64,000 nt of DNA from an uncultured Gammaproteobacteria bacterium (GTDB lineage Bacteria > Pseudomonadota > Gammaproteobacteria > GCA-001735895), in assembly GCA_947260025.1 (NCBI GenBank), contig CAMYON010000013.1, positions 20,806 through 84,805 on the forward strand, read 5' to 3'. The notes beneath the pieces are model-generated. The model saw nothing but the letters and a program-made list of their open reading frames with translations. It ran no database searches and was not told the DNA's origin. The position numbers were made by a program, and so were the translations under genes. Of this stretch, positions 946-59,809 are shown in pieces (the first letter of the stretch is position 1; every line of letters starts with the position of its first letter).

Positions 946-1668
946 TTGAAGCTCGAGAATATCAAGATCGTCATGGTTGGTACCACGCATCCCGGGAACA
1001 TCGGGGCTGCGGCGCGAGCCATGCACAATATGTGTATCGCAAACCTGACCCTGGTCGATCCGCAGTGCCCGGTAGGCCAGGTCGCCTATGCGCGTGCTTC
1101 GGGTGCGAACCTGGTGCTCGATCAACGCGAAACCTTCGCGGATTTGCCGGCGGCGGTTGCCGATTGCAGCTGCGTCATCGCGACCAGTGCACGCCGTCGT
1201 TCACTGGCCTGGCCAGAGCTGGAGCCGCAGGAAATGGCCGGCAAAATTCTGGAGATGGACGATGCCAGCCGGGTAGCACTGGTTTTCGGGCGTGAGCATT
1301 CCGGTTTAACCAACGACGAAATGCAGCTCTGCAACTACATGGTTTGTATCCCGACCAATCCCGAATTCAGTTCCCTCAACGTGGCGTCGGCAATCCAGCT
1401 ATTGTGTTATGAAATTTATCGGCAGCAGTCGATAATGCCGCTTGCCAAATCCCCCGAAGTCGATGACCTGGCGGCCACCAGCGGTGAGCTCGAAGGTTAT
1501 TTCGAGCACCTGCAAAGAGTGCTGGAGCAAAGCGGATTCCTCGATCCGCAACAACCGGGCCTGATCATGCAACGGCTGCGGCGGCTCTACCTGCGCAATG
1601 AAATGACGCGCAACGAAATCAACATCCTGCGCGGCATGCTGACTGCCGTGCAAAAGCAACGGGATTGA
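946..1668 (+). CDS. trmJ: tRNA (cytidine/uridine-2'-O)-methyltransferase TrmJ (SpoU family)
   Basis: 240 aa; near colinear with E. coli TrmJ (IKIVMVxTxHPGNIGAAARAM...ALVFGRExxGLTN); divergent from suhB as in E. coli. Confidence 0.85.
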   Translation: MKLENIKIVMVGTTHPGNIGAAARAMHNMCIANLTLVDPQCPVGQVAYARASGANLVLDQRETFADLPAAVADCSCVIATSARRRSLAWPELEPQEMAGKILEMDDASRVALVFGREHSGLTNDEMQLCNYMVCIPTNPEFSSLNVASAIQLLCYEIYRQQSIMPLAKSPEVDDLAATSGELEGYFEHLQRVLEQSGFLDPQQPGLIMQRLRRLYLRNEMTRNEINILRGMLTAVQKQRD

Positions 1669-1765: not shown

Positions 1766-2224
1766 ATGAAACTTTCAAAACGAATTATTGCAGCAGTCCT
1801 GATCATTGTCGGTAGCTCGGGCGCGGTCTACGCCTACAGTAAGCATGGCGGCTGGGGCATGACGCCGGAGGAAAAAGTCGAATTCGTGACCGAGCGCGTT
1901 ACCAAAAAGCTGAATCTCGATAGTGAACAGCAACAGCGCTTTAGCGAACTCGCCGAAACCGTGGCCCAGATCATGCTCGACGCCAGGGGGAGCAGGCAGC
2001 AGCATGTCGATGAAATTGGCACACTGCTGCAGGAACCCAGTTTTAACCAGGCGCGCATGATGGAAATGGTGCAGCAGAAGACGCAGATGATAAACGAGAA
2101 GGCACCGCTGGTGATTTCATCACTGGCCGTATTCCTGGATTCGCTGAATGTCGAGCAAAAGGAGCAATTGCAGGAATTTCTTAAAAATCACCGCCATCAC
2201 CACAGGCATGGGACAGGACACTAA
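1766..2224 (+). CDS. Periplasmic CpxP/Spy/ZraP-like LTxxQ-family protein with His-rich C-terminal tail
   Basis: 152 aa; signal peptide (MKLSKRIIAAVLIIVGSSGAVYA); two LxxxxEQ/LTxxQ-like motifs; C-terminal HRHHHRHGTGH; RBS GGAGA at -8. Confidence 0.7.
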   Translation: MKLSKRIIAAVLIIVGSSGAVYAYSKHGGWGMTPEEKVEFVTERVTKKLNLDSEQQQRFSELAETVAQIMLDARGSRQQHVDEIGTLLQEPSFNQARMMEMVQQKTQMINEKAPLVISSLAVFLDSLNVEQKEQLQEFLKNHRHHHRHGTGH

Positions 2225-2243
2225 AAACCGGGCCAGTCTGCAA

Positions 2244-2268
2244 CGCGGCTTCTCAAAAGGAAGCCGCG
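2244..2268 (+). promoter_or_regulatory. Stem-loop (9-bp stem cgcggcttc/gaagccgcg, 7-nt loop) between the Spy-like gene and the response regulator; possible attenuator or weak terminator
   Basis: Inverted repeat read in sequence; no T-tract follows, so not a canonical intrinsic terminator. Confidence 0.3.
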
Positions 2269-2305
2269 CTGTACAATATGCGCCTGATTCAGCCCAGGGC
2301 AAGCG

Positions 2306-2941
2306 ATGCGCAATTTACTACTGATCGATGACGATGAGCGACTTGCCGAATCGTTGCGGCAGTACTTCGCCAGGTTCGATCTGGCGCTGCAAAGTGAAAC
2401 CCATCCGCTGCAGGGCATCGAGCTGATCAAGCGTGCAGATTTTGACCTGGTGGTGCTGGACGTCATGCTGCCTGAAATCGACGGCTTCGAGACCTGCCGC
2501 AGGATTCGCCAGTTCAGCGAGATTCCGATCGTGATGCTGACCGCTCGTGGCGAAGTCATGGATCGAGTTGTCGGACTGGAACTCGGGGCCGATGATTACC
2601 TGGCACGGATCCAGAATATTTTCAGGCGTGGCAAGAATGCGCAGCCTGATCACCTGTATCGACTGGGCGAACTATCGGTGGATCTCGATAAGAAACAGCT
2701 GACGCGCGACGGAATTGAAATCGCCATAACCGCGACCGAGTACGAATTGCTGAGGTTGCTGCTGCAGAATCAGCAACGCGTATTGTCGCGCGACGAAATC
2801 ATGCAGGCCCTGCGCGGTATCGATACCGATATCTACAGCCGGGCGATCGATGTGCTGGTCAGCCGTTTGCGGCAAAAGCTGCGGCGTCCTGAACTGATCC
2901 GCACGGTACGCGGGCAGGGCTATCAACTTGTGAATCGCTGA
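2306..2941 (+). CDS. OmpR/CpxR-family two-component response regulator (atypical receiver with beta5 deletion)
   Basis: 211 aa; REC (LLIDDD...LVVLDVMLP...MLTARG) plus winged-helix C-terminus ([10 protein letters not shown]); TGA stop overlaps ATG of the downstream kinase. Confidence 0.85.
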   Translation: [211 protein letters not shown]

Positions 2942-4245
2942 TGTGGCACTTCCTGCAGATTAAATGGCAAAGCCTGGTTTTCAGGCTGCTGTTTTATTTC
3001 CTGATCTCCCTGCTGGCGCTCGCCGTAGTGCTCGGAATCAGTTTTACCAAGCGTCTCAAGCCGCATGTGCAAAATGAAATACTCCCCAATGTCGAACGCT
3101 ATATAGAGTACCTGATCGAAGATATCGGTTTGCCTCCCGATCTCGCGACAGCCGAGCGGCTGGCCGAGGAGTTACCGTTCGAACTCAGAATCGAGGGGCA
3201 GGGGATAGACTGGTCTTCGAGCCCGACGATCCGAGCCATAGGGAGCCATGATTTCAGGCCGGCGCCACCGCCTTACAGTGACGTTTACCTGAGCCATCAT
3301 CGACGCGCCGAGTACCTGTTGATAGAAAAGCAGGGCTATCGCTATCTCTTTGTCGTCGATAGCGGATTTCGTCGCGGCTCGGAGCGGCGCCACGGGGCCC
3401 TGTTCCTGTTCCTGGGTTTGCTCCTGCTGGTGCTTTATATCGCGATTCGACGCATGTTCAAGCCGGTGGAAGCCATGTCCCGGCAGGTGCGCAGGATCGG
3501 CGCCGGCGACCTCGACCAGCAAATCGAGGTCGCGGGTAAAAGCGAACTGGCGTTGCTCGCCGGCGGCATAAACCGGATGTCGGCACAGATCAAGTCGATG
3601 CTGGAGAGCAAATCTGCCCTGTTGCTGGCAATCAGCCACGAGCTGCGTTCGCCGATCACCCGGATGCGGGTAAACCTCGAGCTAATGGACACAAGCGAGA
3701 TCCAGCAAAAACTGATCGATGACCTCCGCGAAATGGAGTCGTTGGTAGCAACGATACTCGAATCCGAAAAGCTCAACAGCGGCCATGCGCCGTTGAACCT
3801 GAGCCGTTGCGACCTGGCGCTGCTGATCCAGGAGGTCTTGCAGGACCATCCCTGCGCGGAGCGTGTCGCCACCAGGCTGACGCCGGTCGAACTCGAAGTC
3901 GACCAAATGCGTATCAAGCTGCTGATCAAGAACCTGGTCGACAACGCATGTCACTATTCGAGCGAAGATGAAGGCCCGATCGAGGTGTCGCTGCATGCCG
4001 CCGACCGGATGGTAAAAGTCGAGGTGCTGGATCACGGAATCGGCATCGCTGCGGACGAGATTCCGCGGCTGACCGAACCTTTTTACCGTCCCGATTCTGC
4101 CCGCCAGCGGGATACCGGCGGTTACGGGTTGGGGCTCTACCTGTGCCAGCTCATCGCCGATGCGCACGGTGGTCAGATCTCGATAGAAAGTAAGCCTGGA
4201 AGTGGTACCAGGGTAATAGTCAGCATACCCCTTGATAATAGTTGA
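2941..4245 (+). CDS. Sensor histidine kinase (CpxA/CusS-like; periplasmic loop, HAMP, HisKA, HATPase)
   Basis: 434 aa; two TM segments; H-box LAISHELRSPITRM; G1/G2 boxes (DHGIGI, GGYGLGL). Confidence 0.85.
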   Translation: MWHFLQIKWQSLVFRLLFYFLISLLALAVVLGISFTKRLKPHVQNEILPNVERYIEYLIEDIGLPPDLATAERLAEELPFELRIEGQGIDWSSSPTIRAIGSHDFRPAPPPYSDVYLSHHRRAEYLLIEKQGYRYLFVVDSGFRRGSERRHGALFLFLGLLLLVLYIAIRRMFKPVEAMSRQVRRIGAGDLDQQIEVAGKSELALLAGGINRMSAQIKSMLESKSALLLAISHELRSPITRMRVNLELMDTSEIQQKLIDDLREMESLVATILESEKLNSGHAPLNLSRCDLALLIQEVLQDHPCAERVATRLTPVELEVDQMRIKLLIKNLVDNACHYSSEDEGPIEVSLHAADRMVKVEVLDHGIGIAADEIPRLTEPFYRPDSARQRDTGGYGLGLYLCQLIADAHGGQISIESKPGSGTRVIVSIPLDNS

Positions 4246-4269
4246 CCATTTTAGTCAGGATTGTATACT
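4242..4269 (+). promoter_or_regulatory. Sigma70-type promoter for iscR (TTGACC -35 at 4242-4247, 16-bp spacer, TATACT -10 at 4264-4269)
   Basis: Hexamers and spacing read from sequence; 30 nt upstream of the iscR ATG; the -35 overlaps the kinase stop codon. Confidence 0.5.
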
Positions 4270-4299: not shown

Positions 4300-4755
4300 A
4301 TGCGACTATCCACTAAAAGCCGATACGCAGTAACCTCGCTGCTCGATCTTGTTATGCATTCAGACCAGGGGCCCGTATCGCTGGCCGATATCTCGGTGCG
4401 CCAGGGTATTTCGCTATCCTACCTGGAACAGTTGTTCGCCAAAATGCGCCGCAACAAGCTGGTTGTCAGCACCCGCGGTCCCGGTGGCGGTTACAGCCTG
4501 GACAGCACTCCCGAGCAGGTATGTATCGCCGATGTAATCAACGCCGTAGACGAAGAAATGCAGGTAGCAGACAAGGATATTCCCAATGGCTCGGCCAGCT
4601 ATGAACCCTGCTTGACAGAGCAACTGTGGGAAGAGCTAAGCGCCGAAATCGAAAACTACCTGACCACGATTTCGCTCGCGGATATGATGAAAAACGAAGA
4701 GGTGCAGGAGCTGTCGCGCGCGCACGATCTGCGCCAACGGCAGAATATCGTTTAG
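4300..4755 (+). CDS. iscR: Rrf2-family transcriptional regulator IscR-like (lacks two of three cluster cysteines)
   Basis: MRLSTKSRYAVTSLLDL...GPGGGYSL Rrf2 HTH; first gene of the isc operon; start taken at internal ATG 4300, not the TTG ORF start at 4261. Confidence 0.8.
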   Translation: MRLSTKSRYAVTSLLDLVMHSDQGPVSLADISVRQGISLSYLEQLFAKMRRNKLVVSTRGPGGGYSLDSTPEQVCIADVINAVDEEMQVADKDIPNGSASYEPCLTEQLWEELSAEIENYLTTISLADMMKNEEVQELSRAHDLRQRQNIV

Positions 4756-4759
4756 GCCA

Positions 4760-5908
4760 ATGTCAATTTACCTCGACCACAATGCAACCTCGCCGATGCG
4801 TCCCGAAGTCATCGACGCGATGATGCCTTTCCTGCAAAACCCGGTCGGCAATCCGTCCAGCCTGCATAGCTATGGCCGCATGGCGCGCTCGGCGGTGGAA
4901 TCGGCTCGCGCCGAGGTGGCGCAGTTGCTGGGTTGCGATAGCGCCGCGGTTATCTTTACCTCGGGTGGCACCGAGGCAAATAACCTGCTGTTGAAGGGAT
5001 ACGTGGATCACGCCAGCCGTCGACCCATCATCAGCAGCGAGATCGAGCATTCCGCGGTTCTCGAACCCTTGAAACAGTTGCAGGCAGAGGGTATGAACGT
5101 GGTCTTGCTAAAGCCAAACCCGCAGGGGCAGGTGGACCTGGAAACAGCGCGGCCGTTGGTTACCGGTGCCGATGCGCAGTTACTGTCGATCATTTACGCC
5201 AATAACGAAACCGGCGTCATCCAGCCGGTCGAGGCGCTGGCCGAGATGGTGGATCGCGATGCCTGCCTGGTGCATAGCGATGCAACCCAGGCAATCGGCA
5301 AGATTCCGTTCGACCTGTCGCAACTGGCAATCGATGCTGTCAGTTTTTCCGCCCATAAATTAGGTGGGCCCCAGGGTGTCGGCGCGCTGGTGGTAAATCG
5401 CAAACCCAGGCAGGCTTTGATTAGCGGTGGAGACCAGGAAAACAAGCGCCGCGGCGGTACTGAAAACGTCGCCGGCATTGTCGGACTCGGCAAGGCGGCG
5501 CAGATTGCGCGACTTGAAATAGCGCACAAGCAACATCACTTAACTCAACTAAGAGATACTTTCGAAGCCAGGCTGTCTGAAATTCCGGGTAGTGTGGTCT
5601 TCGGGCAAGGCGTTCCGCGGCTGCCGAATACGACTTTTTTCGCGCTGCCGTATTACCATGGCGAAACCCTGTTGATGGAACTCGATCGGTTGGGATTCGC
5701 GTTATCAAGCGGCTCCGCCTGCCATAGCATGGTTACCGAGCCTAGCCACGTACTCAAGGCAATGGGTGTCGACGATAACCTGGCTTTGAATGCGATCAGG
5801 GTCAGTTTCGGGATGGATAACAGCTTGCAGGATGCGGAACAACTGGCGGCGAAACTACAGGAACTGGTAGAGAGATTACCGCCGGTCATTCGCCAGGCGG
5901 CGGGATAG
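4760..5908 (+). CDS. iscS: Cysteine desulfurase (IscS/NifS class I)
   Basis: 382 aa; PLP-Lys motif [12 protein letters not shown]; active-site Cys loop SSGSACHS. Confidence 0.85.
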
Positions 5909-5918
5909 AGAGAGATCA

Positions 5919-6242
5919 ATGGCAATTCATCTTAGCGATATAGCGGCATCGAGGGTGCAGCACTTTCTGGAAAACCGGGGCAAGGGCATCGGCCTGCGAC
6001 TCGGTGTGAAAACGACCGGTTGTTCCGGCCTTGCCTATGTCATCGAATTTGTCGATGAACTGCAGGAGGGCGACGAAGTTTTCGAAACCAAGGGTGTCAA
6101 GGTGATAGTCGATAAGAAAAGCCTGATGTTCCTCGACGGCACCGAGGTAGATTTCGCCAAGGTTGGGCTGAATGAAGGATTCCAGTTCAAGAATCCCAAC
6201 GCCAAGGATGCCTGCGGCTGCGGCGAAAGTTTCACCGTCTGA
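5919..6242 (+). CDS. iscA: Fe-S cluster assembly A-type carrier IscA/HesB
   Basis: 107 aa; C-x(n)-CGCG motif (TTGCSG...ACGCGESF). Confidence 0.85.
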
Positions 6243-6258
6243 CCCTTAAACCATAAAC

Positions 6259-6798
6259 ATGCAGTCCCCCGAACTTAGCCAGGACTATTTCGAGTTATTT
6301 GGTTTGAATCCCGTGTTCGATATCGACCCCACCTCGTTGCATGCAGCACAACAGCGACTGCAGGCTAACCATCACCCCGACCGCTACGTCGGCTCGAGCG
6401 AGCAGGATAAGCGGTTATCGGTGCAGATTGCTTCCCGGGTCAACCAGGCCTATGAAACCCTGCGTGACCCGGTAAAGCGTTCTCGCTACCTGCTGGAAAT
6501 CAACGGCGCGACGCTGCCCGACGATTCGGCAACCACGGCCGATACCGAGTTCCTGATGGAGCAGATCGAATTACGTGAAGCGGTCGAAGCCTGCCGCCAG
6601 GGTGAGGATGCGCTGGCGCGTAGCGAAGCGATCGAAACCAGGCTCAAGCAGCGAGCGACAGAACTGGCGCAGGAATTTGTAGAGCGCTTCGATGGCGGCC
6701 GCTTCGACGAGGCGATCGAAGCTAGTCGCAAGATGCAGTTTGTTCAGCGCATACAGCAGCAGCTCGACGAACTACAGTTCGAGCTGGAGGACTTTTAA
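6259..6798 (+). CDS. hscB: Co-chaperone HscB (J-domain)
   Basis: 179 aa; J-domain with HPD; position between iscA and hscA. Confidence 0.85.
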
Positions 6799-8666
6799 TG
6801 GCGCTGTTGCAGATATCCGAGCCTGGCGAGTCGAGCGCACCGCATCAGCGGCGCCTGGCGGCCGGCATCGATCTGGGCACCACGAATTCGCTGGTGGCGT
6901 CGGTACGCAGCGGAGAAGCCATCTGCCTGCCCGATGAGCGCGGGCGGAGCCTGTTACCGTCGGTGGTGCACTACGACGGCAACCAGGTCCTGGTCGGACA
7001 CGAGGCGCGGTCGCTGCAGGCCGTCGACCCGTTAAACACTATTGCCTCGGTAAAGCGGCTTATGGGCAGGGGACAGGAGGACGTCAAGCGGCTTGCCAAC
7101 GTCGTGCCCCATGAGTTTGTCGCCACCGAAGCCAGTACTGTTCCGCGGATTCGCACCGCGGGCGGCGATTTCAGCGCGGTCGAAATCTCCGGCGAAATCC
7201 TGAAAATCCTGGCGCAGCGAGCCGCGCATAGTCTTGGCGGGGATCTCGAAGGCGTGGTGATAACCGTTCCGGCGTATTTCGACGATGCTCAACGCCAGGC
7301 AACGAGAGATGCCGCAAGGTTCGCCGGGCTGAACCTGTTCAGGTTGTTAAACGAGCCCACCGCGGCCGCTGTCGCTTACGGGCTCGACCAGGATGCCGAC
7401 GGATTGATCGCGGTCTATGACCTCGGCGGCGGGACTTTCGATATATCCATTCTGAGGCTCAACAAGGGCGTATTCGAGGTGCTTGCCACCGGCGGCGATT
7501 CGTCGCTGGGGGGCGATGACATGGACCATGCGTTGGGTGAATGGATCATCGAGCAGGCTGGCTTCAGCGATATCGACGCCGTACTGGCGCGCAAGATCCT
7601 GATCGCCGCCCGCAATGCCAAGGAACAGCTTAGCAACGGCGACTCGGCCTTGATCAGTATCGACCACGCGCAGCCATGGCAGGCCGAAATCGGGCGCGCC
7701 CAGTTCAGCGACCTGATTGAACCCCTGGTCAGGAAAACCCTGTCGGCCTGTCGCAGGGCGCTGCGCGACGCCGGTATCGATAAACAGGAAATTGCCGAAG
7801 TGGTCATGGTCGGAGGATCGACGCGGGTGCCGCTGGTACAGACCATGGTGGGAGATTTTTTCGGCCGTAAACCCATGTGCGAACTCGATCCGGACCAGGT
7901 GGTTGCCCTGGGTGCCGCTATCCAGGCCGATATACTGGCTGGCAATAAACCCGATAGCGACATGCTGTTGCTAGACGTGTTGCCGCTATCGCTGGGCATC
8001 GAAACCATGGGCGGTCTGTGCGAGAAAATTATCGAACGCAATACCGCGATCCCGGTGGCGCGCGCGCAGGAATTCACCACTTTCAAGGATGGACAAACCG
8101 CGATGTCGATTCACGTGGTGCAGGGTGAGCGCGAACTGGTGTCGGACTGCCGCTCGCTGGCGCGCTTCGACTTACGCGGCTTCCCGCCAATGGTGGCTGG
8201 CGCCGCCCGGATTCGCGTCACCTACCAGGTGGATGCCGATGGCCTGATGTCGGTTACGGCAGAGGAAACCACCAGCGGCGTAGCCGCGGATATCGTCGTC
8301 AAACCGTCATATGGCCTTACCGATACGGAAATCGAAACCATGCTGCGCGCCTCGATGGAGCACGCCCGAGAAGATATCGAAGCGCGTATGCTCAAGGAGC
8401 AGCAGGTTGAAGCGCGGCGTGTGCTCGAAGCAGTCGACGCGGCGCTGCTGCAGGATGGCGAAGCCCTGCTGAACGAGTCTGAACTGACCGCGATTCAGCT
8501 TAAACGTAGCGAGTTGGAAAAGGGGCTCGAAAGCGCTAGCGCCGATGAGCTCAAACAATTGATCAAGTCCGTCGAGCAGGTCAGTGAGACCTATGTCGCC
8601 CGACGCATGAATGCGAGTGTCAAACAGGCGCTTGCGGGTAAACAAATAGATGAGGTTGATGTTTAA
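6798..8666 (+). CDS. hscA: Fe-S cluster biogenesis chaperone HscA (Hsp70 family)
   Basis: 622 aa; Hsp70 signatures ([16 protein letters not shown]); ATGA overlap with hscB. Confidence 0.9.
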
Positions 8667-9004
8667 TGCCCAGGGTTACCGTATTACCGCACGAAGAGAT
8701 CTGTCCCGAGGGAGCGCAGCTGGAAGTCGAGCCGGGAATCAGTCTGTGCGATGCGATGCTTCGTAATCACATAGAAATCGAGCATGCCTGTGAAAAGTCA
8801 TGCGCCTGTACCACCTGTCACGTTTACGTGCGCGAGGGCTTCGATTCGCTGGAAGAGTCGAGCGAGGATGAAGACGATTACCTCGACAAGGCCTGGGGCC
8901 TGGACATGGATTCGCGCCTCAGCTGCCAGGCGATCGTGGGCGAAGAAGACCTCACGATCGAAATTCCAAAATACACCATCAACATGGTGTCCGAGAACCA
9001 CTAG
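8666..9004 (+). CDS. fdx: [2Fe-2S] ferredoxin Fdx (isc-type)
   Basis: 112 aa; CEKSCACTTCH cysteine motif; ATGA overlap with hscA. Confidence 0.9.
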   Translation: MPRVTVLPHEEICPEGAQLEVEPGISLCDAMLRNHIEIEHACEKSCACTTCHVYVREGFDSLEESSEDEDDYLDKAWGLDMDSRLSCQAIVGEEDLTIEIPKYTINMVSENH

Positions 9005-9013
9005 GAGAGAGCC

Positions 9014-9214
9014 ATGTCCCTGAAATGGACTGATACGCTTGATATCGCGATTGAACTGGCGGAGACGCATACCGATGTCGACCCACAATACGTGCGTTTC
9101 ACCGATTTGCACGCCTGGGTGTGTGCACTTGACGACTTTGACGATGATCCTAATCACTCGAACGAGAAGATCCTGGAAGCCATCCAGATGGCCTGGATTG
9201 ACGAAGCGGACTGA
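9014..9214 (+). CDS. iscX: Fe-S assembly protein IscX (YfhJ)
   Basis: 66 aa acidic protein, colinear with IscX; last gene of the isc operon. Confidence 0.8.
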
Positions 9215-9617: not shown

Positions 9618-10496
9618 ATGAGCAATGTGGCATATATCAATGAAGTTACGTCCGAACGCCAGGGCTACGCCGACCGGTCCCAACTAAAAACCTACTACGA
9701 CAACAAGAACAAGATTGGCTGGTTTTTGATGAAGGGTGCCCCGCGCCCATCCTTTACCGTACGGTTGCTTACCGAAATCAGCGATTATTTCAAAGTTGTA
9801 AAGCAGGAGATGGCCGAGACCAATGGCGAGAAGTATGATTTTCTGGTCCTTGGTTCGGATATCGAGGGGGTTTTCAACCTGGGCGGCGACCTTGAGCTCT
9901 TCAGCCAGTATATTCGTAATAGGGACAGAGAGGGGCTGCTCAGGTACGCCGCTCATAGTATCGATCTGGTGCATCAGAACATGACTCATTTAGGCGAGGA
10001 CCTGACTACTATCTCGCTAATACAGGGAGATGCATTAGGAGGTGGTTTCGAATCCGCGATCTCTGCCAATGTTGTCGTCGCCGAGAGAGGTAGTAAGGCC
10101 GGTCTACCGGAGGTGTTGTTCAATCTTTTTCCGGGCATGGGCGCATTTTCTCTTCTGTCCCGTAAAATCGGATTTGCCGAAGCCGAAAAAATGATAATGA
10201 GCGGTGGCCTGTACTCTGCAGAACAGTTGTTTGATATGGGAGTGGTCGACATTCTCGCGGAAAAAGGAGAGGGCGAGGTTGCTGTTTATCGCTATATCAA
10301 GTCTAACCAAAGGTCAATGAATTCCTACCGTTCGATGCAGCAGGTCAAGGATATCTGCAACCAGGTGAGCTATCAGGAATTAATGGATATTGGAGAAGTC
10401 TGGGCTGATGCGGCGCTTAAACTCACCGAGAAGGACCTGCGTATGATGGAGCGACTGGTTCGGCGTCAAAATTCCCGAGCGGAAGATCAGGCCTGA
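9618..10496 (+). CDS. rpfF: DSF synthase RpfF (crotonase-family enoyl-CoA hydratase/thioesterase)
   Basis: 292 aa; long colinear blocks with Xanthomonas RpfF (VFNLGGDLxLF, LxQGxALGGGFExA, GLPEVLFxLFPGMGA, LVRxQ); both catalytic Glu retained. Confidence 0.85.
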   Translation: MSNVAYINEVTSERQGYADRSQLKTYYDNKNKIGWFLMKGAPRPSFTVRLLTEISDYFKVVKQEMAETNGEKYDFLVLGSDIEGVFNLGGDLELFSQYIRNRDREGLLRYAAHSIDLVHQNMTHLGEDLTTISLIQGDALGGGFESAISANVVVAERGSKAGLPEVLFNLFPGMGAFSLLSRKIGFAEAEKMIMSGGLYSAEQLFDMGVVDILAEKGEGEVAVYRYIKSNQRSMNSYRSMQQVKDICNQVSYQELMDIGEVWADAALKLTEKDLRMMERLVRRQNSRAEDQA

Positions 10497-10497
10497 A

Positions 10498-13083
10498 TTA
10501 CCGATCGGTCAATTCTCTCGGATAATTGTCTCGTTGACCCGTGGCTGCATTGTTTAATGCAGCCACGGTCATATTAAATACTTCCTCGATTGCAAGGCAC
10601 ATCTGGTTTATTTTCTCACTACCTATGTCATAGGGCTTTAACGACTCGCCCTCGTTGCAAATCTCTACCAGCTTGTTGGCGCCAAGCTCGGTCGCCGAAC
10701 CTTTCAGCGCATGCAGATTCTCCCGATATTCGAGATAGTCGTCATACATAGCTTTCTTGGTATTCAGAATATGCTGAGAACCTTCCTTCTCGAAATTCAT
10801 AAGCAGGTTGCTCACGAAATCGGGGTCGTCCCCCAGGATGTCTAGCTCATGCAGCACGACATTGTCATACCATTCCGATTCGGCAAAATTACTCGGTAAG
10901 TGGGTTCTTGATTCTCTTGCCTGGGGCGCTTTTCGGGCCTTCGGCTTGTGAATGTTTTTCGATAATGAAGCGATACACTCAAGCAGGCCGCGGGCGTCTA
11001 TCGGCTTGGTCAGGAATCGATTTGCGCCGGCGCTCAATGAGGCTTCCCTGGCTTCGGGTGTGGCATCGGCAGTCAACATAATGACAGGCAAGTTGCTGCT
11101 GGTATCCATGAAACGCAAGGACTTGACGACTTCGACACCTGAAATCTCGGGCATATTCATATCAAGGATGAGCATGTCGATCTTGTCGAGTTCATTGCTG
11201 AGTATATCCAGCGCTTTTTCTCCAGTGCTGGCGATGCGCACATTGTGCCCCGTGTTGCGGAGTATACCCTCGATAACCTTCTGGTTGACCTGATTATCTT
11301 CGGCCACCAGGATATTTAGCGCGGCCGCACCGGACTGCTTTGCGTAATGCTCAGCCATGGTGACGATCTTGTTGTCATTCAGATTAACACTCTGTGCCGC
11401 GTGAAGAGCATTGAAAAGGAGTCGTTTTTCTTCGGGATTGGCGATAGTCGAGATGTAGTAATGACTCGAGCGGTTGGCGTCGATCATCGTATCGGACGAA
11501 TTGATCAGTACCATGGAAGTATTTTCCAGTAAACCCTCGGATTTCACCATTTGCGCGAATTGCAAAGCATTTATATCGACCAGGCAGGACTGGTCCACGA
11601 TGATAGTCTCGTAGGGATTGTTGTCATCGTCCGACTGAATCATCTGCGACAGGGCGCGACTCGAGGTTCGAACCCAATCGAAATTAACCTGCCAGTATTT
11701 GAGTGCGGGTCTGATGATGCTGGCGGTATCCTCACCTGACAGCAGCAAGACGTGGTTTTCGGAAATACTGGTTTCCGGGTTGGTGCTCGCCAGGAACGGT
11801 AGTTCGAACCAGAAAGTGGAACCCTTGCCGGCCTCGCTGACGACGCCTATTTCACCGTCCATCAACTCGACCAGCTCCTTCGATATTGTTGTTCCGAGCC
11901 CGGTACCGCCGAATGTGCGACTCGTGCCGGCATCGGCCTGGGTGAAATCATCGAAGATCTTGCCGAGGTCCTCCTCGGCGATTCCGATGCCGGTATCGAC
12001 GATTTCGAAACGAATTCGCGGGGTCGACGCAGTGCCACCGATCAAGCGTACGGACAGGATTACCGAACCCTTCTCGGTGAACTTGATTGCGTTATTAACC
12101 AGATTGATGAGCACCTGCCGCAGATGTTGTTGATCGCCTTTGAGCGCAAACGGCGTCTCGGGATCAAAGGTGCAGGATACCGTCAATTCCTTCTTTTCAC
12201 CCATCGGTGCGAGTATGTAGATTACCGAGTTGACCAGACCATGCAGGTCGAAATTCCTCGACTCGATCAGGATCTTGCCAGCCTCGATCTTGGCGATATC
12301 GAGCACGTTTTCAATCAGTTCGAGCAGGGTATTGGCGGAGCCGTGCATGGTGTTGACGAGTTCCTGCTGCTCATAGTTCAGCTTGGTTTCGCGGAGCAGG
12401 TCACCCATGCCGATGACGCCGTTGAGCGGAGTTCTCAATTCATGCGACATATTCGCGAGGAAACGACTCTTGGCCTCGTTGGCCTGCTTTGCCATATTTA
12501 CCGCGGCGTGTAACTTTTTTATCAGGAAGCCGGCGTATAGCGGCAACAGGCATAGCATCAGCAGCAGGCTGATGCCAAAGCTTCGGTGCTGTTGCCAGTA
12601 GTCACCCCAGATCACCACTACGGCAAATCCAACAATGGCTATTCCCTGGGAGACATATAGGTTGGTCAATCCGAAGCGGAATCCGTTGCCCAGAATCACC
12701 CACAGATAAATCAGGAACAACGGCACGGTTTCGGCTCCCGTGTTAAACATCAGTACTGATAATGATCCCATGTCCAGTGCCGCACCGCAGATTCGTCGGA
12801 TCTGGGACGGCACCGGATTCAGAGCAATCGCCGTAAAAATTGCCATCGCGCCGGAGTAGTACAGGATTACGATGAGTCCAGCGAGAGAGGCCACGGCCTC
12901 GACAAAGCTTTCATCACTGCCCCAGGGGGTGCAGATATATATCAGAACAATGAAACCAATAGCCAGGCGCAACTTGGCCTGTTCAGGCTCAGAATCTCCG
13001 GTTCCCTTGAGTCTTTTGTTGAGTCGCCCTAGAGGGCCGATTTTTGCTTTGGAGGACGCCATTCTTAGCTGGAGAAGCGACAA
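10498..13083 (-). CDS. rpfC: DSF sensor hybrid histidine kinase RpfC (5-TM sensor, HisKA, HATPase, REC, HPt)
   Basis: 861 aa; N-terminal DSEPEQAKLRLAIG motif shared with Xanthomonas RpfC; H-box NMSHELRTPLNG; receiver (LVAEDNQVN...LILDMNMPEISG); C-terminal HPt (HALKGSA); stop 1 nt from the rpfF stop (convergent). Confidence 0.85.
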   Translation of the reverse strand: MSLLQLRMASSKAKIGPLGRLNKRLKGTGDSEPEQAKLRLAIGFIVLIYICTPWGSDESFVEAVASLAGLIVILYYSGAMAIFTAIALNPVPSQIRRICGAALDMGSLSVLMFNTGAETVPLFLIYLWVILGNGFRFGLTNLYVSQGIAIVGFAVVVIWGDYWQQHRSFGISLLLMLCLLPLYAGFLIKKLHAAVNMAKQANEAKSRFLANMSHELRTPLNGVIGMGDLLRETKLNYEQQELVNTMHGSANTLLELIENVLDIAKIEAGKILIESRNFDLHGLVNSVIYILAPMGEKKELTVSCTFDPETPFALKGDQQHLRQVLINLVNNAIKFTEKGSVILSVRLIGGTASTPRIRFEIVDTGIGIAEEDLGKIFDDFTQADAGTSRTFGGTGLGTTISKELVELMDGEIGVVSEAGKGSTFWFELPFLASTNPETSISENHVLLLSGEDTASIIRPALKYWQVNFDWVRTSSRALSQMIQSDDDNNPYETIIVDQSCLVDINALQFAQMVKSEGLLENTSMVLINSSDTMIDANRSSHYYISTIANPEEKRLLFNALHAAQSVNLNDNKIVTMAEHYAKQSGAAALNILVAEDNQVNQKVIEGILRNTGHNVRIASTGEKALDILSNELDKIDMLILDMNMPEISGVEVVKSLRFMDTSSNLPVIMLTADATPEAREASLSAGANRFLTKPIDARGLLECIASLSKNIHKPKARKAPQARESRTHLPSNFAESEWYDNVVLHELDILGDDPDFVSNLLMNFEKEGSQHILNTKKAMYDDYLEYRENLHALKGSATELGANKLVEICNEGESLKPYDIGSEKINQMCLAIEEVFNMTVAALNNAATGQRDNYPRELTDR

Positions 13084-13086
13084 TTG

Positions 13087-14229
13087 TTAGCCGTCGCTGA
13101 AGGTTTCATGGATATTGACGATATTGTCCAGACGTTCGAAAAAAGCCTCCACGCAAATCGGGTCGAACTGGGTGCCAGCGTGCTTGTGCAGATAATCCTG
13201 GGCGTCCCTGGCTTCCCAGGCGCGTTTATAGGGCCTGATCGATACCAGTGCGTCGTAAACGTCGGCAACCGCGACGATGCGCGCTACCAGTGGAATATCC
13301 TTGCCTGAAAGTCCGTTAGGGTAGCCGGTGCCGTCGAAGCGTTCATGATGGTTGAGCGCGATGATCGAGCCGGTCTGGATGTAACGTGACTGGCTGTTGG
13401 ACAGGATCGAATGCCCGATGATCGTATGTTGCTGCATCGTCAGCCACTCCTGTTGCTCGAACTTGCCGGGCTTGAGCAGGATCTTGTCCTGGATTCCGAT
13501 CTTGCCGATATCGTGCATCGGTGCGGCGTATTCGATTTCATCGCATTCTTTTTCAGACAATCCCAGGGCCTCGGCGATTTCTCGCGAGTACTTGGCCATG
13601 CGTACCACGTGGTTGCCCGTGACTTCATCGCGATATTCGCCAGCCTTGGCCAGTCGCAGCAGGGTTTCATGTTCGCGCGACACGATTTGCTGGGTTGCGA
13701 CCTCGACCTGGCGTGCCAGCCAGTCGGCACGGTCCTGGATAATCGACTGCTGTTCGTGCAGCTTGAGCAGGTTACGGCAGCTGGTGCGGCATTCGATCTG
13801 GTCGATCGGACGCGTCAGGAAGGCGGTGGCGCCAGCCTCGAGTGCGTCGTAGCGTACCGATTTCTCGCTGACCACGGTAATCATCATGATGGGTATATCC
13901 TGGCACGATGGTTTGGCGCGAATCTGCTTAATCATCTCGACGCCGTTGAGATCCGGCATGCGATAATCGGTAATAATAAGGTCCGGATGATTGTGATCCA
14001 GCCACTGCAATGCTTCCAATGGGTTGTCGAAAGAATCGACGCAGACATCTTCTTCGGCTTGCTGAATAATCTTGGCCAGTATCGTTCGGCCGGTGGATTC
14101 GTCGTCGACGATCAGTACTTTTCGTTGGCGTCTGAGAATGCTTAGACGGCGAGCGTTTTCGTACGGTTCGATATTCGAGTCCTTTGGAATATCGGTTTTT
14201 TTATCTGTACTCGAGATCAATTTTTTCAC
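13087..14229 (-). CDS. rpfG: REC plus HD-GYP c-di-GMP phosphodiesterase response regulator RpfG
   Basis: 380 aa; receiver (VLIVDDE...LIITDYRMP); HD-GYP motifs (APMHDIGK, HHERFDGTGYP); 3-nt gap to rpfC. Confidence 0.85.
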   Translation of the reverse strand: MKKLISSTDKKTDIPKDSNIEPYENARRLSILRRQRKVLIVDDESTGRTILAKIIQQAEEDVCVDSFDNPLEALQWLDHNHPDLIITDYRMPDLNGVEMIKQIRAKPSCQDIPIMMITVVSEKSVRYDALEAGATAFLTRPIDQIECRTSCRNLLKLHEQQSIIQDRADWLARQVEVATQQIVSREHETLLRLAKAGEYRDEVTGNHVVRMAKYSREIAEALGLSEKECDEIEYAAPMHDIGKIGIQDKILLKPGKFEQQEWLTMQQHTIIGHSILSNSQSRYIQTGSIIALNHHERFDGTGYPNGLSGKDIPLVARIVAVADVYDALVSIRPYKRAWEARDAQDYLHKHAGTQFDPICVEAFFERLDNIVNIHETFSDG

Positions 14230-49394: not shown

Positions 49395-50612
49395 ATGCGA
49401 TCATGCCTGGAATCGATTCCTGACGATAGCAGTCGCGTATTCGTGGCCTACAGCGGTGGCCTCGATTCCAGCGTATTGCTGCACCTGCTGCTATCGACCG
49501 AGCGAGAATACGAAATCCTGCCCTGGCACATCAATCATGGCCTGGTTGATAACGCCTTGCAGATGGAACAATTCTGTATTCAGCAGGCGCAGGCTTATGG
49601 CCTCGAAATCCGCGTCGATCGACTCGACCTGGCGAACGTCGACAGCAATATCGAGGCGGTCGCGCGTCGTCAGCGTTACCGCCTGTTCGAAGAAAACACG
49701 CAAGCTGGCGATTGCATCCTGACCGCCCATCATGCCGATGATCAGGCCGAAACCTTTTTGATGAATGCGTTACGTGGTTCGGGAGTTGCCGGGCTGCGCG
49801 GTATTGCCGGGCAGCGACGTCTGGGTTCGTCCCTGTTATTGCGTCCGCTACTGGGATTTAGTCGTGAGCAGCTGGAGGATTATGCAAATCGGCACGAAGT
49901 GGCCTGGTTTAACGATCCCAGTAACCAAAATCCGAGATTCGACCGCAATTACCTGCGCCGCGAGATCGTGCCGTTAATCAAGCAGCGCTGGCCGGGGTAT
50001 CAGGACGCGCTGTCGACAAGTAGCGAGATACAGTCCGAGACGCAGGCCTTACTCGATGAAATCGGATCGCAGGACTATCAGCATCTGCGTATCCCGGATC
50101 GTGGCAAAATCGATCGACTGGATATCGGTGCGATGATGCAACTGTCATTGCCGCGTCGCAAGAACCTGGTTCGGTACTGGATTACAACCGCCGGGCTGCC
50201 GCCGCCGCCGTTTAGCCGCTTGCGGGAGACGATGCAACAACTACAAGCTCGACCCGACGCCATGCCCAAGATTGTTATGTCGGGCTACTCGCTAAGGATA
50301 TACGATCGGCAGCTTTTCCTGGTGCTCGAACGTGCCCGCGATAAATGCGGTGGTGCGTTCGAATTCGGTCAGCATGAAAAGATCGAGATTCCGCAGCTGG
50401 ATTTACGGTTGAGCCGCAAGGAGATATTGCGGCGGCTCGGTGTCGCCGATAAAAACCAGTCTTTGACGCTTAAGTTTCGGCAACGGGGCGAGCAAAACGA
50501 GGATGGCCATCGGCTCAAGCGGTTATTTCAGCAGCATCGAGTGCCGCCCTGGGAGCGCGATTCTACCGCGCAGCTTTATCTCGACGGTCGGCTCGAGGAC
50601 TTGCTGCTATGA
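49395..50612 (+). CDS. tilS: tRNA(Ile)-lysidine synthetase
   Basis: 405 aa; PP-loop SGGLDS. Confidence 0.85.
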   Translation: MRSCLESIPDDSSRVFVAYSGGLDSSVLLHLLLSTEREYEILPWHINHGLVDNALQMEQFCIQQAQAYGLEIRVDRLDLANVDSNIEAVARRQRYRLFEENTQAGDCILTAHHADDQAETFLMNALRGSGVAGLRGIAGQRRLGSSLLLRPLLGFSREQLEDYANRHEVAWFNDPSNQNPRFDRNYLRREIVPLIKQRWPGYQDALSTSSEIQSETQALLDEIGSQDYQHLRIPDRGKIDRLDIGAMMQLSLPRRKNLVRYWITTAGLPPPPFSRLRETMQQLQARPDAMPKIVMSGYSLRIYDRQLFLVLERARDKCGGAFEFGQHEKIEIPQLDLRLSRKEILRRLGVADKNQSLTLKFRQRGEQNEDGHRLKRLFQQHRVPPWERDSTAQLYLDGRLEDLLL

Positions 50613-59721: not shown

Positions 59722-59809
59722 GGAGAGCTGGCAGAGTGGTCGAATGCGGCGGTCTTGAAAACCGTTGACCCGAAAGGGTCCGGGGGTTCGAATCCCTCGC
59801 TCTCCGCCA
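59722..59809 (+). tRNA. tRNA-Ser (anticodon UGA), class II with long variable arm, encoded CCA
   Basis: 88 nt; colinear with E. coli tRNA-Ser(UGA) (CGGTCTTGAAAACCG anticodon arm; GGTTCGAATCC T-loop). Confidence 0.9.

Follow-up and report, generated by a model that had tools for sequence, protein, structure and literature searches.

IscR is a model regulator whose DNA specificity is switched by an iron-sulfur (Fe-S) cluster. In this work, we analyzed a 64,000-nt stretch of contig CAMYON010000013.1 from an uncultured gammaproteobacterium (hereafter the window, whose positions are used throughout) and found an iscR gene whose product has lost three of the four canonical [2Fe-2S] ligands, while its own promoter keeps a near-consensus type-1 IscR box. 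The product is a true IscR ortholog, which stands at the head of an isc operon in a suhB/trmJ neighborhood and has IscR proteins as its best database matches. The ligand loss is a fixed trait of an uncultured gammaproteobacterial clade, neither an error nor a one-off. The variant is most likely a still-functional autorepressor with a rebuilt sensor site. Based on the sequence comparisons described below, we give an even chance to the more specific reading that, with the canonical [2Fe-2S] site lost, it would bind the type-1 box without depending on the classical cluster.

Loss of cluster ligands in a conserved IscR ortholog

The gene and the two segments of interest within it are as follows.

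4300..4755, + strand: iscR variant, an Rrf2 winged-helix regulator of 151 aa with K92, S98, C104, and E107; ratio of nonsynonymous to synonymous substitution rates (dN/dS) 0.078
4555..4599, + strand: former cluster-binding loop, codons 86-100; length kept, sequence variable; includes K92 and S98
4600..4635, + strand: hyper-conserved patch, codons 101-112, YEPCLTEQLWEE; includes E102, P103, C104, E107, and Q108; candidate sensor site

The open reading frame (ORF) starts with ATG at 4300 and ends with the stop codon at 4753-4755 on the + strand, and its product has the N-terminus MRLSTKSRYAV. It contains an Rrf2 domain (Pfam PF02082, 123 bits vs. a cut-off of 30), and its top NCBIfam families are both of the IscR models, yet its scores are below the curated equivalog cut-off of each (TIGR02010, 167.9 vs. 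207.55; NF008110, 157.4 vs. 275). The CymR equivalog in NCBIfam was not reached (89.2 vs. a cut-off of 195). The top-scoring solved structure is that of E. coli IscR (PDB 4HF1; phmmer E = 4e-38); the next match behind the E. coli IscR entries is PDB 7ZPN, for which our literature search returned nothing relevant. Residues 1-141 of the variant align with residues 1-141 of E. coli IscR with zero gaps, and E. coli residue numbering therefore carries over directly. At the ligand positions, C92 is replaced by Lys (4573-4575), C98 by Ser (4591-4593), and H107 by Glu (4618-4620), and C104 is kept (4609-4611). The first-pass annotation of this DNA had described an IscR homolog at 4300-4755 in which C104 is the sole remaining ligand Cys, C92 and C98 are non-Cys, and H107 is replaced by Glu, and had concluded that the canonical cluster site is lost. 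The ORF, the Rrf2 domain, the best matches, and the gapless alignment agree with this description, and the (Cys)3His [2Fe-2S] site is gone. The segment quoted in that annotation, VCIADVINAVDEEMQVADKDIPNGSASYEPCLTEQLW, corresponds to residues 74-110. An AlphaFold2 model of the variant, built from a 40-sequence alignment of close homologs, was discarded due to a mean predicted local distance difference test score (pLDDT) of 48.5 and a predicted template modeling score of 0.32.

The distribution of the variant was examined in two ways. A search of ~5.8 billion proteins provided 120 homologs with 87-97% identity among the matches listed, and a scan of one genome per bacterial species, which was not exhaustive, provided 80 retained loci of ~20 kb each. 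These loci comprise 67 species-level genomes with the variant (L001-L067, 64-97% identity) and 13 canonical relatives (L068-L080, ≤53% identity). Alignment with relatives that may share the Cys-poor form had been proposed as a check in the first-pass annotation, and the same pattern appeared in both sets. Among the 120 listed homologs, C104 is present in all, E107 in 119, and position 92 is Lys or Arg. C104 and E107 are both present in 67/67 species-representative genomes, where the core EPCLTE is invariant and preceded by Tyr or Phe at position 101, and the ORF is intact in every one of them. The next relatives, L068-L080, all have the canonical C-C-C-H ligand set. Thirteen clade members have one single Cys in the entire protein, and therefore no alignment, structure-aware or not, can put three Cys in the pocket; such a placement was the finding that the annotation had named as contrary to its claim. 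The closest named member is the Olavius algarvensis Gamma 3 endosymbiont (L004, 95% identity). The remaining members are metagenome-assembled genomes labeled as Gammaproteobacteria or, in a few cases, as other taxa, and the sample names suggest that the clade mostly inhabits marine sediment or sand.

Selection on the variant was assessed by pairwise Nei-Gojobori estimates from 251 pairs with dS of 0.3-1.5. The whole protein (1-141) has a dN/dS of 0.078, indicating strong purifying selection, and the DNA-binding domain (1-85) has a value of 0.042. The former ligand loop (86-100) is relaxed, with a dN/dS of 0.24 that corresponds to evolution ~6x faster than the DNA-binding domain and with column conservation of 24-85% across the clade; constraint has therefore been lifted from the segment in which C92 and C98 used to lie. 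Within this loop, position 92 is Lys or Arg in nearly all members, and position 98 is free to be Ser, Ala, Gly, Pro, Leu, Thr, or Gln. Residues 101-112 have the lowest value in the protein (0.010), and residues 113-141 have a value of 0.111. The codons of the invariant residues are mixed (E102, 36 GAA and 31 GAG; C104, 48 TGC and 19 TGT; E107, 34 GAG and 33 GAA), such that the amino acids never change although synonymous codons turn over freely.

Compared to the canonical relatives, the changes fixed in the clade are K/R92, Y/F101, E102, P103, E107, and Q108, among which the aromatic residue at 101 replaces a Gly that is invariant in canonical IscR. Five positions in helix 1 were switched together (T4S, G7S, A13S, M14L, and A18V). 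The cluster sites of NsrR and RsrR are lined in part by helix 1 from the partner subunit (PMC5411485, PMC9218516). The recognition helix and wing (S38-F46 and R59-Y65) are 100% conserved in the clade and identical to those of canonical IscR, and the DNA-reading residues S40, Y41, E43, Q44, and R59 are all unchanged and 100% conserved in the clade.

A retained type-1 operator at the iscR promoter

Two regulatory elements were found upstream of the gene.

4242..4269, + strand: sigma-70-type promoter, TTGACC (4242-4247), a 16-nt spacer, and TATACT (4264-4269); 10/12 match
4238..4262, + strand: type-1 IscR box, ATAGTTGACCATTTTAGTCAGGATT; overlaps the -35 element and the spacer, as well as the 3'-terminal codons of the histidine kinase gene upstream

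The TTGACC-16-TATACT promoter, which had already been recognized directly upstream of the gene in the first-pass annotation, is present at 4242-4269 and is conserved across the clade. The box at 4238-4262 matches the type-1 consensus ATASYYGACTRWWWYAGTCRRSTAT (PMC3899308) at 22/25 positions; the footprint-supported sites A and B of P. aeruginosa match the same consensus at 68% and 76%, respectively (PMC3899308). With ≤3 mismatches allowed, the 64-kb window has no other match, and 100 shuffles yielded none. A type-1 box occurs at the same position, ~61 nt 5' of the start codon, in 67/67 clade loci. Its variable positions are few and are mostly the degenerate positions of the consensus. In the alignment of upstream regions, the block ATAATAGTTGACCATTTTAGTCAGGATTGTATACT is ~90-100% conserved, vs. 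~40-60% for its flanks, and this conservation runs through spacer positions on which RNA polymerase by itself would impose no constraint. Furthermore, nine deep-branching members (L052-54, L057, L060-63, and L066) have two tandem boxes 25-26 bp apart. Tandem boxes also occur in E. coli, and a tandem two-site arrangement has been described for P. aeruginosa (PMC3899308). The canonical relatives L068 and L071-73 have a box at the same position as in the clade, and the operator is therefore ancestral and retained. With dS of ~1, synonymous sites are near saturation, and an unused operator would therefore have decayed.

Few other sites of this kind were found. Across 962 kb of related loci plus the window, only five further sites reach ≥20/25 (scoring 20-21/25), namely two in L034 and one each in L039, L041, and the window (49416-49440). 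The last is a 21/25 match, ATTCCTGACGATAGCAGTCGCGTAT, inside an unannotated 405-aa ORF (49395-50612) and is probably a chance match. No type-2 IscR motif was found in the 64-kb window at ≤3 mismatches, and the best type-2-like matches in the promoter regions of the clade score 15-19/26, with none standing out. As a separate observation, the histidine kinase gene terminates (TGA, 4243-4245) within the -35 hexamer of the iscR promoter and shares its last codons with the box, such that transcripts of the upstream two-component operon could read through into iscR.

An isc operon without iscU

The genes surrounding and following iscR are as follows.

31-819, - strand: suhB-like inositol monophosphatase gene, which together with trmJ marks the ancestral isc neighborhood
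946..1668, + strand: trmJ (NCBIfam TIGR00050, 225 bits)
1766..4245, + strand: insertion separating trmJ from iscR, with a CpxP-like gene and genes for an OmpR-type response regulator and a histidine kinase
4760..5908, + strand: class-V cysteine desulfurase of 382 aa, closer to NifS than to IscS; active-site Cys and pyridoxal phosphate Lys present
5919..6242, + strand: iscA, A-type carrier (NCBIfam TIGR02011, 174.8 bits, above cut-off)
6259..6798, + strand: hscB, co-chaperone (NCBIfam TIGR00714, 108 bits, above cut-off)
6798..8666, + strand: hscA, chaperone (NCBIfam NF003520, 964 bits)
8666..9004, + strand: fdx, ISC-type [2Fe-2S] ferredoxin (NCBIfam TIGR02007, 183 bits)
9014..9214, + strand: iscX (NCBIfam TIGR03412, 117 bits)

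The desulfurase scores higher against NifS (TIGR03402, 399.7 bits) than against the IscS models (314-328 bits), with all scores under the respective cut-offs, and has no IscS-type C-terminal tail. An IscU-like ORF was found in 0/67 clade loci, and the LPPVK motif of IscU was not found in the 64-kb window. Only 10 bp separate the desulfurase gene from iscA, which therefore leaves no room for iscU. In four canonical loci for which the full context is covered, iscS-iscU is present. Both iscR and iscA are found in 58 clade loci; of these, 46 have an intact desulfurase gene, five have a remnant of it, and seven lack it cleanly. These 12 cases of loss or truncation are scattered (L007, L017, L018, L022, L023, L025, L030, L039, L045, L048, L050, and L051). 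The iscA-hscBA-fdx-iscX genes are intact where the desulfurase is lost, and the variant regulator and its box persist in all 58 loci. In this clade, the genes for the Fe-S scaffold and for the main sulfur donor must lie outside of the isc operon, and no suf genes were found in the operon or elsewhere in the 64-kb window. The suggestion in the first-pass annotation that control of Fe-S homeostasis has been rewired in this organism thus finds a counterpart at the locus itself, where the operon is devoid of iscU and the NifS-like desulfurase is often lost. A different type of isc reduction, with no ligand loss, was observed in gamma proteobacterium HdN1 (L069, 9995-11678). The IscR encoded there is of the canonical C-C-C-H type; behind its gene lie only that of a 384-aa IscS-like desulfurase and, next, ndk, with iscU, iscA, hscBA, and fdx absent from the locus.

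The CpxP-like/response regulator/kinase insertion between trmJ and iscR is found in most related loci. In the window, the OmpR-type response regulator (2306-2941, + strand) has an in-frame deletion of 10 aa, PKPFEPRELV, between GADDYL and ARIQNIF. It takes away the KPF segment, which in receiver domains carries an invariant lysine. The deletion is absent from all five relatives compared (L001, L003, L004, L016, and L059) and is either a genuine, inactivating event or an artifact of assembly. On the 3' side of iscX, the region 9618-14229 contains genes for an RpfF-like crotonase (NF006452, 376 bits), a hybrid sensor kinase (- strand), and a response regulator (- strand) with a cyclic di-GMP phosphodiesterase family as the best match. 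Homologs of these three genes recur in many related loci, and the trio resembles a cell-cell signaling cluster of the diffusible signal factor type. The sole Rfam match in the window is a transfer RNA gene (59722-59806, + strand).

Readings of the sensor site and relatives of the variant

In the reading that we favor, the variant would bind the conserved type-1 box that covers the -35 element and spacer in its own promoter and would repress an operon consisting of iscR, the NifS-like desulfurase gene, iscA, hscB, hscA, fdx, and iscX, with no iscU. Type-1 binding would have been freed from the classical cluster. The segment that connects the DNA-binding domain to the dimerization helix appears to have been rebuilt through K/R92, Y/F101, E102, P103, E107, and Q108 together with the helix-1 changes, and these residues may lock the protein in a type-1-competent, holo-like shape. 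The basic residue at 92 and the acidic residues at or near 107 could form a salt bridge in place of the cluster. The C104/E102/E107 patch may serve as the remaining input site, for example via thiol modification. Cluster-independent binding is favored because one ligand position has become basic, acidic residues are fixed, position 101 is aromatic, and the rest of the loop is free.

Several points weigh against this reading. E43 is retained in the variant, and in E. coli this residue keeps apo-IscR off type-1 sites (PMC5411485, PMC3899308); cluster-free type-1 binding would therefore need a compensating change. Judging from the sequence, the invariant C104 and the ligand-capable Glu107 would suit a retained cofactor equally well, and the single-Cys IscR of R. 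sphaeroides has been reported as an Fe-S cluster binder (PMC4618611). Conceivably, though improbably, the box is the target of another IscR, of canonical type, encoded elsewhere in the genome. In addition, the salt-bridge lock is a proposal from sequence, as the structure prediction is unusable (pLDDT 48.5). We regard as possible, though on the unlikely side, the fullest form of the proposal, in which the clade has evolved an IscR that needs no cluster and stays in the type-1-competent, holo-like conformation. The [2Fe-2S] cluster would be replaced by a side-chain network (K/R92, Y/F101, E102, E107, and the helix-1 serines), with C104 kept as a thiol, persulfide, or single-iron input.

The best-surviving alternative, which we consider rather unlikely, is that the variant is still a metal or cluster sensor that holds a labile Fe-S cluster or a single iron on C104 and E107. 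The remaining ligation would come from E102, D84, or an external thiol, the loaded form alone would bind the type-1 box, and classical feedback would be kept. The positions of C104 and E107 probably held one Fe of the old cluster, and the H107 to Glu change exchanges one ligand-capable residue for another. Asp and Glu ligands have precedents among Rrf2 proteins in NsrR D8 and RsrR E8 (PMC5411485, PMC9218516). The invariance of C104, E102, and E107 despite free synonymous change, in a region with a dN/dS of 0.010, is consistent with a cofactor site, and the retention of both the type-1 box and E43 is explained most simply if a holo form exists. However, position 92 is Lys or Arg in nearly all members, position 98 varies freely, and the loop evolves ~6x faster than the DNA-binding domain. 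Neither position 8 nor position 12 of the partner helix 1 is Asp, Glu, His, or Cys. Ligation of a cluster by one Cys together with carboxylates would be very unusual, and no iscU is available in the operon to load the protein.

A precedent for such a sensor is the single-Cys IscR of R. sphaeroides and other Rhodobacteraceae, which also heads an Fe-S biogenesis operon, has no (Cys)3His motif, and has one conserved Cys (PMC4618611). The R. sphaeroides protein has an Fe-S-type absorbance that is gone in a C142A mutant (PMC4618611), and this family demonstrates that the loss of ligands need not cost function or cofactor (PMC4618611). Unlike the variant, it is alphaproteobacterial; its C142 matches no canonical ligand (PMC4618611), whereas the Cys of the variant is the canonical C104, and the evidence for its cofactor comes from chemical reconstitution with a Cys at this non-homologous position. 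Its targets also differ, as it uses the Iron-Rhodo boxes of the isc-suf operon and iron-uptake genes (PMC4618611), whereas the operator of the variant is an E. coli-type type-1 box.

In a second alternative, a canonical IscR from another part of the genome, perhaps encoded together with iscS-iscU, acts on the box, and the variant is a neofunctionalized copy that has other targets or competes for the box. The retention of hscBA, fdx, and iscX without iscU suggests an IscU-type client elsewhere in the genome, and the HscB encoded in the window carries a FLMEQ motif and a later Phe, which we take to be IscU contacts. Moreover, Rrf2 paralogs are common, and many IscR-like proteins with few or no ligand Cys are found outside of isc operons. 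Nevertheless, the variant occupies exactly the ancestral iscR position, no second Rrf2 gene was found within ~10 kb in any of the 67 loci, and 0/80 retained loci of the non-exhaustive scan pair the variant and a canonical IscR in one assembly. The reading head of the variant is identical to that of IscR and under very strong selection, and it should therefore recognize the same box. Given these observations, we assign this explanation a low probability.

The model put forward in the first-pass annotation has a lower probability still. It proposed that the variant binds no cluster, is permanently in the apo form, binds only type-2 sites (e.g., for suf activation), and does not repress its own operon. 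The loss of three of the four canonical ligands agrees with this model, as does the retention of E43, the barrier to apo-IscR at E. coli type-1 sites (PMC5411485). Permanently apo behavior is difficult to reconcile with a conserved type-1 box and an unchanged reading head that includes E43. The exclusive use of type-2 sites is not what the locus indicates, given that the near-consensus type-1 box is found in 67/67 promoters with its spacer positions conserved, and that the window has no type-2 match and the promoters have nothing better than 15-19/26. The absence of autorepression is likewise at odds with the box in the own promoter, which is in tandem in nine genomes and would have decayed at dS of ~1 if unused. 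Because the box is kept in 67/67 loci and the DNA-reading residues are unchanged, this model as a whole is unlikely; the step from ligand loss to an apo protein also left out the single-Cys IscR of R. sphaeroides, which is reported to bind Fe-S (PMC4618611). Finally, the loss of iscU from the operon and the 12/58 truncated or deleted desulfurase genes could hint that iscR is a remnant of a degenerating isc operon with no regulatory role, but this pseudogene reading is rejected based on the dN/dS of 0.078, the ORF intact in 67/67 genomes, the invariant recognition helix, and the conserved promoter and box, which leave it next to no probability.

Among characterized regulators, the variant is most similar to the [2Fe-2S] IscR of E. 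coli and Pseudomonas (PDB 4HF0 and 4HF1; TIGR02010). These proteins share ~50-54% identity with it in a gapless alignment, have an identical recognition helix and wing that include E43 and R59, are encoded by the first gene of an isc operon located by trmJ/suhB, and have type-1 box(es) over their own -35 element, which in some clade members are in tandem as in sites A and B of P. aeruginosa (PMC3899308). In contrast to E. coli-type IscR, the clade variant has K/R92, S/A/other residues at 98, and E107, with C104 alone kept. It also falls under both IscR equivalog cut-offs, has five helix-1 residues switched, and heads an operon without iscU in which a NifS-like desulfurase takes the place of IscS.

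Two other groups of Rrf2 proteins are informative for the sensor site. SifR and YwnA are repressors without a cluster that have one conserved Cys near the start of the dimerization helix (PMC9218516), and both their DNA binding and their sensing depend on this Cys (PMC9218516). By analogy, they could serve as a model for a thiol switch at C104, which is the sole universally conserved Cys in the clade and lies at the start of a predicted helix (107-121) in the low-confidence model (pLDDT 48.5), where it might correspond to SifR C102. Unlike the variant, which adjoins isc genes, these monothiol proteins belong to a separate Rrf2 sequence cluster and act on quinone/catechol genes, and YwnA (1XD7) gave no match to the variant clade even at E ≤10. 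NsrR and RsrR (PDB 5N07 and 6HSD) are also Rrf2 proteins, in which carboxylate or His residues and the partner helix 1 participate in binding the cluster and position the recognition helix. In contrast to the variant, they keep two or three Cys ligands and recognize different operators, and their similarity to it is weak (E = 1.9e-5 and 0.11, respectively, in a clade-profile search).

The loss of ligands by itself is not rare among IscR-like proteins. We surveyed 118 full-length IscR-like representatives of 50%-identity clusters nearest to the variant (among P0135-P0267) and found ≤1 ligand Cys in 53, many of which have no Cys at all. The IscR-type recognition helix (SLSYLEQLF-type) is kept in almost all of these 53, with E43 in 52/53 and R59 in nearly all. 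Ser4 and Ser7 are enriched among the ligand-poor proteins (Fisher p = 6e-6 and 0.003, respectively, uncorrected for phylogeny). Two examples, L081 (divergent to feoABC) and L082 (stand-alone), lie outside of isc operons, have no type-1 box, and therefore represent a different situation from the variant clade. Judged by these sequence features, the ligand-poor proteins look like a large, uncharacterized set of cluster-less IscR-type regulators; with 53/118 representatives having ≤1 ligand Cys, such regulators would therefore be common and almost unstudied.

What is new here is the combination of a gammaproteobacterial IscR ortholog with C104 only, the H107 to Glu exchange, a retained type-1 autoregulatory operator, and an iscU-less operon; no description of this combination was found in the literature searched on related terms. 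A structure of holo-IscR, which would bear on how the cluster enables type-1 binding, was absent as of 2017 (PMC5411485), and none was found in our PDB search. A clade that keeps the type-1 operator and E43 and has dropped three of the four ligands provides a natural experiment on this question. If a type-1-competent shape can arise with no cluster, the variant would offer a stable protein to crystallize on type-1 DNA; otherwise, a one-Cys/carboxylate site can still hold a cofactor. If the variant is indeed cluster-free and fixed in a holo-like shape, it would be a stable stand-in for holo-IscR and a case in which a metal site was replaced by protein with the operator kept. These findings also point to an unusual Fe-S biogenesis, with a scaffold-less isc operon and a dispensable desulfurase, in an abundant marine-sediment group that includes an animal symbiont.

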